NCBI GenBank assembly: GCA_003345555.1
Contig: PRDJ01000039.1
Coordinates: 30,001 to 62,000, forward strand
DNA length: 32,000 nt
Direction: 5' to 3'
From: Candidatus Thorarchaeota archaeon
GTDB lineage: Archaea > Asgardarchaeota > Thorarchaeia > Thorarchaeales > Thorarchaeaceae
Shown piece after piece: positions 20,346-24,210 of this stretch. Both the position numbers and the translations under genes were made by a program. Every line of letters begins with the position of its first letter. Within the stretch, counting starts at the first letter, position 1. The notes beneath the pieces are model-generated. The model searched no databases and was not told where the DNA came from. It saw only the letters and a list, made by a program, of their open reading frames with translations.

Positions 20346-21749
20346 ATGCCTAAGAAGTTCGTGCCAAGAGGGATAATGCCAGCCCTCATAACGCCATTCG
20401 CGAAAGATGGCGAGATAATCGAACAGAGCTTTCGCGAGATTATCGATTACACAATTAGCAAAGGAGCCGCCGGAGTCGTACCCGCTGGCACAACGGGCGA
20501 GTTCGTTTACATGAATATGGACGAGCGCAAGAAGCTTCTGAGTCTGACAACGGAATGCGTGAATGGTCGCGTTCCGATTATTGCAGGCACAGGTCAGAGC
20601 AGCACTGAAGCAGCTACTGAGCTGACGAAGTACGCGGCAGATATTGGATGCGATGCAGCTTTGATCGTTTCTCCCTTCTATTTGAAACCGACTGACAAGG
20701 GCTACTACGAGCACTATGCCACTATCGCAAGAAAGAGTGACCTGCCTGTCATAATGTATAATATTCCTCAGATGGGCGGTATGGGTGTCCTCCCTGTTAG
20801 CGTTGTGGAAGACCTAGCCGAACTGGACAATATCGTAGGCATCAAGGACAGCAGTGGTAACATAACCTACATGCTGGAACTACTGCAGAAGCTAAAAGGC
20901 CGCATTTCTGTGATAAATGGCAATGACGAGATCTTCTTCTCTGCAGTGACTGCGGGTGTGAACGCCGCAATCATGGCCTCAGCGAACTTGATGCCTCATC
21001 TTTGGAATGATCTTTTGAAGAAAGTCCGCAAAGGTGACATTGATGGAGCCCTCAAGCTTCAGCTCTCGATGCAGACTCTGACTCGAATTGTGACAAGGTA
21101 TGGAGGTGCTCCGCCAGTCAGGGCAGCACTGAAGATGATGGGAATCGATTCGGGTAAAGCACGAATGCCACTTAACACAGGTGGGACGTTGACTCCCGAA
21201 CTTAAGGAGGAAATAAGAGTCGAGCTGGAGAAGCTAGGGCTGATTGGGGGTTCAAAGCATGTTGGTCCAGCGAAAGAAGTCGACATTAATGGTGTCCTAC
21301 TAGAGGCCGGATTGAGTGCCGAACAGCAACAAGCCCTCAAGGTCGGACGCGGATCGAGTCAAGCTTGTACCGCCAGCGTCGTTTGTGGATCCAAGACCGG
21401 TCCCCTGGGATCAGCGTTTGTCCGATTGCTGACGACTCCGCGAATTGGACGCGAGGCACTATCAGTGATTCTTGAACCGAACTTGGCTGTCAGACCTTCC
21501 AGCCTAATGTTGCCGGGCAGAAAGATCAGCTCAATGCGTCAGGCGTCAGTGTTCTACGGTCCAGTGCAGTCCGGCGCTGCTAGAGCTGTTGCAGGTCACC
21601 TAGCTGCTGGCAAGATATCTCCTGACGCGGTTCAAAACAATGTCATGGTGATGGTGATCGATGTGGACTTGGATACAGTCGACAGAAGAGCAGTCACTGC
21701 CGCTACGGAGGTAGCGGTTTCCGCGGCTCTCAGTCAGATTTGGAGGTGA
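20346..21749 (+). CDS. DapA/NAL-family class I aldolase (Schiff-base Lys intact) fused to a degenerate Fae domain (467 aa)
   Basis: GIMPALITPF, AGTTGEF, SPFY, MYNIP, VGIKDSSG (AAG 20844-20846); C-terminal EPNLAVRP and RQASVFYGPVQSGAARAV match Fae, but there is no His in the segment matching AHIDL. Confidence 0.9.
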   Translation: MPKKFVPRGIMPALITPFAKDGEIIEQSFREIIDYTISKGAAGVVPAGTTGEFVYMNMDERKKLLSLTTECVNGRVPIIAGTGQSSTEAATELTKYAADIGCDAALIVSPFYLKPTDKGYYEHYATIARKSDLPVIMYNIPQMGGMGVLPVSVVEDLAELDNIVGIKDSSGNITYMLELLQKLKGRISVINGNDEIFFSAVTAGVNAAIMASANLMPHLWNDLLKKVRKGDIDGALKLQLSMQTLTRIVTRYGGAPPVRAALKMMGIDSGKARMPLNTGGTLTPELKEEIRVELEKLGLIGGSKHVGPAKEVDINGVLLEAGLSAEQQQALKVGRGSSQACTASVVCGSKTGPLGSAFVRLLTTPRIGREALSVILEPNLAVRPSSLMLPGRKISSMRQASVFYGPVQSGAARAVAGHLAAGKISPDAVQNNVMVMVIDVDLDTVDRRAVTAATEVAVSAALSQIWR

Positions 21750-21755
21750 GGAAAA

Positions 21756-23234
21756 ACGCCTGAAGGATCTTGGCGATTCAAAGGTGTGTACGCCGGACTA
21801 GTCACACCGTTTGGTGAGAACGGCGTCAATGAGGCACAATACCGCAATCTGATTGAGCATGTTATCAAGGCAGGGGCAAACGGCATTGTTCCCTGCGCAT
21901 CACTCGGCGAATTCACAAGTATGTCATTTGAGGAGAAAGCTGAAGCTATTCGAGTCGCATGCGACGCTGCGAAGGGACGGGTGCCGGTGCTTGCGGGTGC
22001 ATGCGCGGCTTACACTGCCGACGTCGTCAAGCTGTATCTAAAGGCTGCCGAGTACGGAGCTTCGGGGGCGTTGGTAGTCTCTCCGTATTTCATGAAGCCT
22101 TCCACAAAGGAAATCTATGAACACTATGAGAAGGTTGCGAACTCAGCTGGTCTCCCAGTATTCCTGTATAATTGTCCACAGTTCACTGGCGTGAACCTCG
22201 ACTGGTGGCTGATCGAAGGTCTGCGCGAGATCAAGGGCATTATTGGGCTCAGCGATGCGAGCGGCAACTTGGTCAATGTCTCGCAGATACTCGCTCGTCG
22301 GCCAGAGGACTTTCAAGTTGTTGTTGGCCATGATGAAGTCGTTCTGCCGAGTATGGCAGCAGGCTGCGATGGAGCTATCCTAGCAACTGCAAATATCTTC
22401 CCCGACAGATATGTAAGAATGGCGATTGCTCTAAGTCAAGGCGATCTCAAAGAGGCTAGACTCATTCAGCGTAGCGTTCAGAGAACCGCGAGAATCGTTG
22501 TCAACAAGGGCGGTCCTCTCGCTGTCAAGGCGGCCCTGAATATGATGGGCATCCCCGTCGGTTCTGCTCGAATGCCTCTCCTACAGGGCGATGTTCTGGG
22601 CTATGATGACTTAGATGAACTCAGGACACAGCTGGAAGACCTCCAGCTGATGCCTAGAGGGTCAGTCACCTACAGGGCGCATGGTCGATCCGTTGTTACG
22701 GATGCATATCCGAAGGCTGTGGGAATGAGCAAGGACATCATCGATGACCTCACCCTCCTTCATGGAGAAGCTTTGTGTGGGGAGGGATTGGAAGTTGCTC
22801 ATGTCGATCTGGTTGTGGGACTCAAGGATGGGCCTATGCAGGCTGCCTTGACCAACGCAGGTATCAAGACCGATGGCTTCCATATGTCCAACATCATCAA
22901 GGACCTTCGACCTACGACCGTATTTGCGCCCACGGTGACAATCACCGACGAACATCACAGCAGGCTCGTGTTCGAGTTCGCTCAGAAGGCCGTTGCTGAC
23001 GCTGTGACAAGGACAATCACAGACCGGATGATTCCCGAGGAGCTTGTGCCAGACCTAGTGATTGCTGTGAAAGTGTTCGTCCATCCCAATGCCAACAACC
23101 CAAGACGGGTACACATGAACAATTTCCGAGCCACGAGGTTTGCGATAAGGCGAGCTCTGGAAGGTCGACAATCTGTAGAGGAGGTAGTTGCCCGAAAGGA
23201 CTCAGCTCGTCATCCATATGGCTACAATCCATGA
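21756..23234 (+). CDS. fae: DapA-like pseudo-aldolase (Schiff-base Lys to Ser) fused to an intact-looking Fae domain (492 aa from ACG 21756; 482 aa from GTG 21786)
   Basis: GVYAGLVTPF, ASLGEF, LYNCP, IIGLSDASG (AGC 22251-22253 at the Lys position); Fae signature GEALCGEGLEVAHVDL, AQKAVADAV, VFVHP, ATRFAIRRAL, C-terminal HPY. Confidence 0.9.
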   Translation, partial: TPEGSWRFKGVYAGLVTPFGENGVNEAQYRNLIEHVIKAGANGIVPCASLGEFTSMSFEEKAEAIRVACDAAKGRVPVLAGACAAYTADVVKLYLKAAEYGASGALVVSPYFMKPSTKEIYEHYEKVANSAGLPVFLYNCPQFTGVNLDWWLIEGLREIKGIIGLSDASGNLVNVSQILARRPEDFQVVVGHDEVVLPSMAAGCDGAILATANIFPDRYVRMAIALSQGDLKEARLIQRSVQRTARIVVNKGGPLAVKAALNMMGIPVGSARMPLLQGDVLGYDDLDELRTQLEDLQLMPRGSVTYRAHGRSVVTDAYPKAVGMSKDIIDDLTLLHGEALCGEGLEVAHVDLVVGLKDGPMQAALTNAGIKTDGFHMSNIIKDLRPTTVFAPTVTITDEHHSRLVFEFAQKAVADAVTRTITDRMIPEELVPDLVIAVKVFVHPNANNPRRVHMNNFRATRFAIRRALEGRQSVEEVVARKDSARHPYGYNP

Positions 23235-23331
23235 GCCTACCTCATAGATGTTGATATAAGCCAGAAACGCTCGGGAAGATGTAAGCCGGCCATACATCGC
23301 CACCATCTCCAATCTACGGCAGGCGAAACGG

Positions 23332-23541
23332 GTGTCGGGACAATACGGTCAGTCGCTAAAGGATCTACTTGAGCGAATGCATATTTCTGACTCAGAGAAG
23401 CTTGTTGCGGAAGGTGAGACCTTAGTGATAGACACGAAAGCAGAACGAATTCTCCTCTCGCGAAAGGATGGCGTTCTGTCAATCAGGTCTCTTCCTTCAC
23501 CGGGATCCGGCAGTATTGCTGGAAAGGGTCACAACACTTAG
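23332..23541 (+). CDS. Possible small hypothetical protein (at least 69 aa)
   Basis: Protein-like composition; TATA-like GATATAAG near 23253-23260; frame open back to 23260 without a canonical start. Confidence 0.35.
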   Translation: MSGQYGQSLKDLLERMHISDSEKLVAEGETLVIDTKAERILLSRKDGVLSIRSLPSPGSGSIAGKGHNT

Positions 23542-23560
23542 TTGGCCGATTGTTAAGCCA

Positions 23561-23668: not shown

Positions 23669-23676
23669 TATTTATA
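23669..23676 (+). promoter_or_regulatory. TATA box not followed by a credible ORF; candidate ncRNA promoter
   Basis: TATTTATA; a start ~23698-23701 would precede the structured region. Confidence 0.45.
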
Positions 23677-23698
23677 CTTACAGAGCCAGTATTGAGTG

Positions 23699-24003
23699 AG
23701 CCAAGCAGATTTGTCTTAGCGTGCTAGCCCAGATTCCGTTGGAGCTCGACAATATGGTTGAAACCCGTTCTGCCAAAGTGGGCCTCCATCAAGGGGACGA
23801 GACGGCATGCTTGGCTGGGCCCACAAGGGGGACCAAGACGTTGGCGATCGACACCGCCGAAATCAACAGTTGCGTATCTATCTCGAAGGTTCTCCACATC
23901 ACCTCTTCGAGGGATGGCGGACCTTGTTCGGTTTGTCCTGTGAAAGTGTCTCATAGATAGCAACCTGAGAAAGCGGCCGTTTGGTATGGAACGGGTTTCA
24001 ACC
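23699..24003 (+). ncRNA. Candidate structured non-coding RNA of unknown family (strand inferred from the TATA box)
   Basis: Perfect 15-bp inverted repeat GGTTGAAACCCGTTC (23756-23770) / GAACGGGTTTCAACC (23989-24003) enclosing several nested stems; no credible ORF. Confidence 0.5.
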
Positions 24004-24210
24004 TAACCATTCTGCAGGTCCGGCAGGTCATAAACAACTCTGGTGGCAAGTCTCAGCCTGCTCTTGGATCGTCATTGCTCGGTGCTCAGATAGGGGTAAC
24101 CGCCTCATCGACCCGCCGTTCTCCACTTGTCTCGCGCTCACCTTATGAAACTGCCTTTTTCCGTCGCAATCTTCTTAGCGTGCCTAGACTGGTCCCTCAC
24201 TGATGCAGCG

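Follow-up and report, generated by a model that had tools for sequence, protein, structure and literature searches.

The window, a 32,000-nucleotide stretch of Thorarchaeota DNA, carries between the aldolase-Fae genes and M20 what is rather probably a monocistronic transcript of about 310 nt, made from a Thorarchaeota small-protein gene, whose 3' end pairs with codons 1–5 as a fold-back lock. We refer to this gene as unit B and to a tandem small gene upstream of it as unit A. The promoter position, leader, Shine-Dalgarno (SD) sequence, open reading frame (ORF) and covarying closing helix of unit B are each supported by comparison with related genomes.

Anatomy and family distribution of unit B

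The TATA box of unit B lies at 23669–23676 on the plus strand, where an earlier note on this DNA, made from its letters alone, had placed a TATA box; it is conserved among orthologs, and its spacing is common to nearly all of them (77–95 nt from TATA box to start codon; 85 nt in the window). Transcription would start near 23695–23700. The 5' leader of about 57 nt (23697–23753, plus strand) is conserved in sequence throughout the family; its last part is a TCC-NNN-GGA motif, within which lies the SD sequence, GGAG (23741–23744, plus strand), 9 nt 5' of the start codon. The anti-SD is present at the 3' end of Thorarchaeota 16S rRNA. A 68-codon ORF follows on the plus strand (23754–23960; start at 23754, stop at 23958–23960), a drifted ortholog of a Thorarchaeota protein of about 55 amino acids. 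Its start codon, together with the SD sequence, is located at the foot of the closing helix, which we call the lock helix. The 5' arm (23756–23777, plus strand) runs from the G of the AUG and consists of 15 bp and a 7-bp extension; the 3' arm (23980–24003, plus strand) is made of the segments 23980–23986 and 23989–24003 and ends 249 nt past the start codon. The earlier note had found no convincing ORF here. The 5' arm that it reported is codons 1–5 of the 68-codon frame, and this frame, behind GGAG, corresponds by position to a conserved small-protein gene, of which it is the ortholog.

The complete unit (TATA box, leader of about 60 nt, small ORF and a 3' arm pairing from the G of the AUG) was found in 12 of the 16 genera of this Thorarchaeota family, in one copy, between the aldolase-Fae genes and M20. 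A DNA search matched the adjoining stretch 24043–24113, which holds a convergent small RNA (sRNA), in 26 of 36 family genomes; 5' of it, most genomes had a TATA box, a leader of about 60 nt with GGAG and a small ORF, and the gene order Fae, unit, sRNA, M20 was kept in nearly all loci. The assignment of the window's unit as an ortholog is based on its neighbours and its TATA spacing, which are those of the family. Moreover, a DNA profile built without the window's genus had its best genome-wide site at 23735–23768 (E = 0.0098). From the start codon to the 3' arm the window has 249 nt; this distance was 237–253 nt in most genera and 164–232 nt in loci with deletions. The distant genus g10 was missed by both profiles, and it has the unit in place, with a 13–14-bp helix and a compensatory change of its own. 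In two genera the protein is kept but the helix has been lost or has shifted, the unit was absent from the g12 loci examined, and genus g14 has a different long-stemmed RNA in its place. Pattern scans of metagenome and genome contigs revealed no further members of the window's genus.

Two further observations concern the surroundings of the unit. The region 20346–23234 (plus strand) of the window encodes two tandem DHDPS-family aldolase-Fae fusions, which are syntenic with the unit across the family. At the orthologous position of genome G016 (L010:1015–1450), a TATA box precedes an RNA that has 13-bp and 12-bp long-range stems, nested, and that showed no match to either small protein.

Covariation and folding of the closing helix

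The closing helix is the only structure conserved family-wide. A perfect 15-bp closing stem (23756–23770/23989–24003) had been reported from the window's letters, and this stem is present and conserved across the family. Among 34 sequences, 96% of cells were paired and both sides had changed in 5 of 10 pairs; this covariation was reached by 0 of 500 shuffles, which ignore kinship, and slid registers gave 24–51%. Pair 7 was A-U in 27 cases, G-C in 21 and G-U in 1, never A-C, and its state switched within six separate genera. Many one-sided changes in the helix were G-U on the plus strand, which points to selection acting on the RNA of that strand. These comparisons support selection on the unit for RNA pairing. 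The helix begins at one and the same nucleotide wherever it occurs, and in most orthologs a pyrimidine-rich tail that resembles a transcript end comes after the 3' arm.

The predicted cost of opening positions −15 to +15 around the start codon was 10.6 kcal/mol until 23990 and 26.5 kcal/mol when 24003 was included, and the family medians moved in the same direction (10.7 to 18.9), a rise that follows partly by construction, since the arm was removed for the comparison. Among the 1674 GGAG-spacer-ATG sites of the genome, one has a comparable downstream complement (score at least 28), and a looser genome scan for downstream complements of start sites returned 2 of 12705. An inverted repeat of 19 bp, whose halves are separated by about 255 nt and which surpasses the present one in strength, was also seen on contig C32 near 14250 (plus strand); it has no TATA box.

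The earlier note had proposed an independent, ORF-less, multi-branched structured RNA. The unit's own TATA box and the selected pairing agree with an independent RNA; the absence of an ORF and the multi-branched fold are not supported. All the complementarities listed were found in the sequence, including the 1-nt bulge in the stem 23869–23881/23953–23964. However, only the closing helix is conserved, and the inner helices have no comparative support. The folding z-score of 23699–24010 was −2.56, with 2 of 100 shuffles equally stable, and that of the interior without the closing helix was −0.8; the fold signal of the whole region is therefore due to the closing helix. Likewise, the closing helix covaried family-wide and the inner helices did not, with no inner conserved helix above a mean probability of 0.25 in the family alignment.

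Ensemble pair probabilities in the window RNA were 1.0 for the closing 15 bp, 0.78 for the 7-bp extension and 1.0 for 23843–23846/23855–23858. The inner hairpin (23778–23824, plus strand) is shared with the closest relative only and is in competition with another way of extending the lock helix: its stem 23778–23784/23818–23824 and the rival pairing 23781–23784/23975–23978 each had a probability of 0.4. The inner branch at 23869–23964 (plus strand), whose interior is deleted in the closest relative, was improbable in the ensemble (0.01–0.02 for 23869–23881/23953–23964 and 23882–23888/23905–23911). As for a suggested pseudoknot between 23699–23707 and 23808–23816, the complementarity is present and the pseudoknot shows no covariation. 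This pairing had a probability of 0.99 when the transcript ended at 23830 and of 0.0 in the full-length ensemble, a value that applies to nested structures, as the folding program cannot score pseudoknots; among these structures, it was dominant in short nascent transcripts only.

With about 300 nt, its own promoter and a long closing helix, the element resembles archaeal SRP RNA (RF01857) and RNase P RNA (RF00373). Consistent with the earlier note, it is neither: matches to these models were absent from the element, which had no Rfam match at either threshold. The RF00373 match of this genome lies on contig C57 (144.6 bits). RF01857 had no match in this genome; three genomes of the same genus carry SRP RNA at other loci and with other sequence, so the element is not a divergent SRP RNA. 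Weak RNA-model matches proved to be ordinary genes. As a separate observation, genome G000 has no rRNA motifs or SRP RNA assembled and 17 tRNAs called, despite 93% completeness.

Dual-function sRNAs and tmRNA are RNAs with an internal ORF closed by pairing of the ends. The unit is similar in being a short independent transcript with a helix-enclosed ORF and, in some lineages, a loosely constrained peptide. It differs in that it has no tRNA-like domain and has a normal SD sequence and start codon; ARAGORN called no tmRNA in the genome, and no Rfam match was obtained. A permuted tmRNA was rejected on inspection, since an acceptor stem cannot form between the CCA-like end of the leader and the arm. 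A further difference is that no base-pairing target was found for the unit.

The unit B protein, unit A and the drifted peptide

Most genera encode a conserved protein of about 55 amino acids that belongs to no known family. It was found in 57 of 76 family genomes; outside the family, a search of 301 genomes gave one weak, spurious match in a frame with stops. The named database matches were Thorarchaeota hypothetical proteins, one of them labelled Promethearchaeota. Differences at codon positions 1, 2 and 3 were 22, 14 and 49%, indicating that the gene is protein coding. Pfam assigned no family (one weak Paratox match in 1 of 12 members), and the Atlas matches to DUF7092 were under 0.9. The predicted structure (pLDDT 87) consists of a strand, a helix and three strands; fold searches gave no clear match, the best being a non-significant Z of 4.5 to the KH region of Dim2/Pno1. 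GRAVY is negative, and the model suggests a soluble alpha/beta protein. One intact ortholog (L028:1633–1842, minus strand) has AAG at the usual start; translation may begin instead at an in-frame CTG just 5' of it, which lies at SD distance.

Unit A (23332–23541, plus strand) is a small ORF of 69 amino acids with a GTG start, its own TATA box near 23254–23259 and no lock helix. It is unannotated, encodes an acidic protein without a Pfam family and is conserved in 8 genera. A gap-free alignment of the unit A and unit B proteins spans 59 columns (hhalign 58%, E = 1e-4), three C-terminal strands fall at matching positions, and the two proteins are probably remote paralogs. The genera that lack an intact B protein (g1, g10, g12 and g13) have A, and genera without A have B; g14 is the only genus with neither. 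Redundancy with unit A may be the reason why the B peptide could drift. No conserved RNA pairing between the two units was found. Between them, at 23542–23557, lies a 16-nt motif ending in GTTAAG, which occurs in all aligned genera, even those without unit A, and is possibly a minus-strand promoter or a factor site.

The peptide of the window's genus no longer matches the family profile. Compared with the closest relative over 33 codons, 3 differences were synonymous and 15 non-synonymous. Nucleotide identity in the same comparison was 85% for promoter and leader and 83% for the interior, against 36–51% at four-fold sites of neighbouring and marker genes. In the window's genus the peptide is thus no longer constrained at the protein level, with the DNA conserved far above synonymous sites, and so the unit may have a partly non-coding role there. 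The helix in this genus is lengthened to 15–22 bp, and four genomes have differing yet still-pairing sequences. One genome of the genus has ACG for AUG, and within the genus conserved nucleotides are read in different frames. Start-anchored frames were open for 42–86 codons in all 7 of 7 drifted orthologs (g1, g10 and g13), with shuffle P values of 0.014–0.12 per ortholog, the orthologs not being independent. In an RpoA1 tree, the window's genus is nested among protein-bearing genera, which favours the view that the unit B protein was lost here and not gained elsewhere, the alternative not being rejected (AU p = 0.22).

The proposed fold-back lock and its alternatives

The mRNAs of the type I toxins hok (hok/Sok, plasmid R1) and aapA1 (Helicobacter pylori) are locked by folding back (PMC4147584, PMC5416894). 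The unit resembles them in its small ORF, in a full-length RNA predicted to hide its initiation region by 3'-end pairing, as the covarying helix and the computed opening cost suggest, and in an alternative pairing predicted for the nascent RNA. It differs in being archaeal, in a 3' arm that lies directly on codons 1–5 rather than acting via the 5' leader, in a protein that is soluble alpha/beta by model rather than a small hydrophobic membrane toxin, in its single fixed chromosomal copy, in the retention of the helix after peptide drift, and in that no antisense antitoxin was found.

We lean towards a hok-like lock, in which translation would occur only from nascent or 3'-trimmed RNA. The 3' arm would be the last part to be transcribed, and ribosomes would load during RNA synthesis; once the arm is made, the helix would bury the initiation region and leave a finished RNA that is stable and silent and would be translated again only after the arm is trimmed or displaced. 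Such a lock would cap protein output per transcript. Archaea couple transcription with translation (PMC7858274), and coupling together with a late 3' arm would give a window for translation on the nascent RNA, followed by a silent full-length form. For the window's genus, peptide constraint would have been lost, probably because unit A was kept, and the promoter, SD region, open frame and lengthened helix would stay under selection. From the helix and the gene anatomy, which the comparisons establish, we infer repression, processing and a trigger of the lock. Searches found neither an antisense RNA or trigger for the lock nor a trans partner for the leader. A 6–7-nt leader complement to 16S helix 45 was rejected for its wrong order relative to the SD sequence, and an 11-nt match near a TnpB end is single and likely due to chance.

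Several findings speak against the lock: the two protein-keeping genera noted above, the ACG start and mixed reading frames, which are hard to reconcile with a lock that guards a protein, and the near-constant arm-to-arm span, which a simple lock does not need. A tentative extension, which we think possible at a level well below that of the lock itself, is that an mRNA is turning into a regulatory RNA: after tandem duplication the peptide would have become indifferent in at least 2–3 independent lineages, with promoter, ribosome-binding site, frame and lengthened lock selected, and the function would be ribosome loading or the RNA rather than the protein.

Slightly less plausible, and on balance doubtful, is that the RNA itself is the functional product, dual-function in most genera and effectively non-coding here, with the helix closing and stabilising a fixed-size scaffold that offers the conserved leader for contact with a partner RNA or a protein, the ORF being a passenger. 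RNA features outlast the peptide in g1, g10 and g13, leader conservation extends beyond the SD sequence, and the ACG start, the constant span and the long-stemmed RNA that g14 has at the same place, without a matching ORF, would all fit. However, the interior structure is not conserved, deletions of 50–85 nt are tolerated, the SD sequence and open frame persist, the leader alignment gave no consensus fold, and the partner searches were negative.

It is unlikely that the helix is a stability or processing signal, whether as protection of the 3' end from the exosome or as a mark for cleavage or circularisation, with the covering of the start codon a side effect. The transcript-end-like tail after the 3' arm and the uniform first nucleotide of the helix would fit such a signal; yet on inspection a conserved bulge-helix-bulge geometry was seen at neither side of the helix, the tandem unit A has no such helix, and a terminal hairpin could protect the end without recoding the first codons.

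We consider it quite improbable that the locus is a type I toxin-antitoxin module in which the antitoxin would be the convergent RNA or some unseen antisense RNA. A locked small ORF with a convergent small RNA 23–42 nt away resembles the txpA/ratA and fst loci, and about 9 nt at the 3' end of the sRNA are complementary to the 3' arm. However, sRNA and arm do not covary, and the sRNA is absent from the locus in g4 and 0.4–1.3 kb away in others while the helix persists. The locus is fixed and single-copy, and the protein is predicted to be soluble; some type I toxins are soluble, so a non-hydrophobic protein does not exclude toxicity. The sRNA is moreover a C/D guide with rRNA targets, and we regard it as a neighbour rather than a part of the lock. 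The unit would work like the lock of a type I toxin mRNA, and we do not class it as a toxin-antitoxin system because it encodes a non-hydrophobic protein, occupies a single fixed locus and has a convergent RNA that serves another purpose.

This sRNA (24046–24116, minus strand) is a double-guide C/D box sRNA with C (24103–24109), D' (24086–24089), C' (24069–24075) and D (24053–24056) boxes and a terminal stem, and a TATA-like site lies near 24141–24150. It gave weak matches to C/D families; its D' guide aligned with the snoR38 guide, and the score against snR38/snoR38 (RF00213) was 20.1 bits, below the Rfam cut-off of 45. The guides match the 23S rRNA of relatives at 2572–2580 (9 nt) and 2637–2644 (8 nt), both near the peptidyl-transferase centre. 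We take the predicted methylation sites to be the equivalents of E. coli G2446 and C2510, and yeast Gm2815 to be the equivalent of the former. Thorarchaeota 23S rRNA (L097, L098 and L099) presumably has G at the position of E. coli A2448. The sRNA thus shares the four boxes with snR38 and archaeal double-guide C/D sRNAs, and the aligned D' guide with snR38, which guides yeast Gm2815 (PMC5199042). Unlike snR38, its guide follows a Thorarchaeota-specific 23S change and its second guide targets another site. Most guide copies follow the Thorarchaeota G; those of g5 are A-type although g5 23S rRNA has G. Tandem or variant sRNA copies were observed at L021:1380–1447, L024:1628–1691 and L030:1501–1570, with a D guide that matches the 23S A-loop region; for each of the two sequence variants of this guide, the family has a 23S variant that matches.

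That the element is a MITE, or another mobile remnant bounded by inverted repeats, is barely credible: a perfect 15-bp inverted repeat does enclose around 220 nt, but there is one copy per genome, including the window's, at the same position in 12 genera, a fixed synteny that refutes this reading, variation is of the G-U type, and no flanking direct repeat of 2–12 nt was found, in line with the earlier note, which had seen no target-site duplication.

In the literature searched, which covered few subscription papers, we found no description of a fold-back translational lock in archaea. The locus yields two new small-protein families and a putative guide RNA whose ribosome target site is methylated in eukaryotes. 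The unit would represent a fold-back lock that is conserved, with compensatory changes, throughout an entire Asgard family, that sits on a fixed gene present in one copy and that survives the decay of its protein, and it offers a compact, testable case of control from the 3' end to the start codon in archaea and of a functional shift from coding to RNA.
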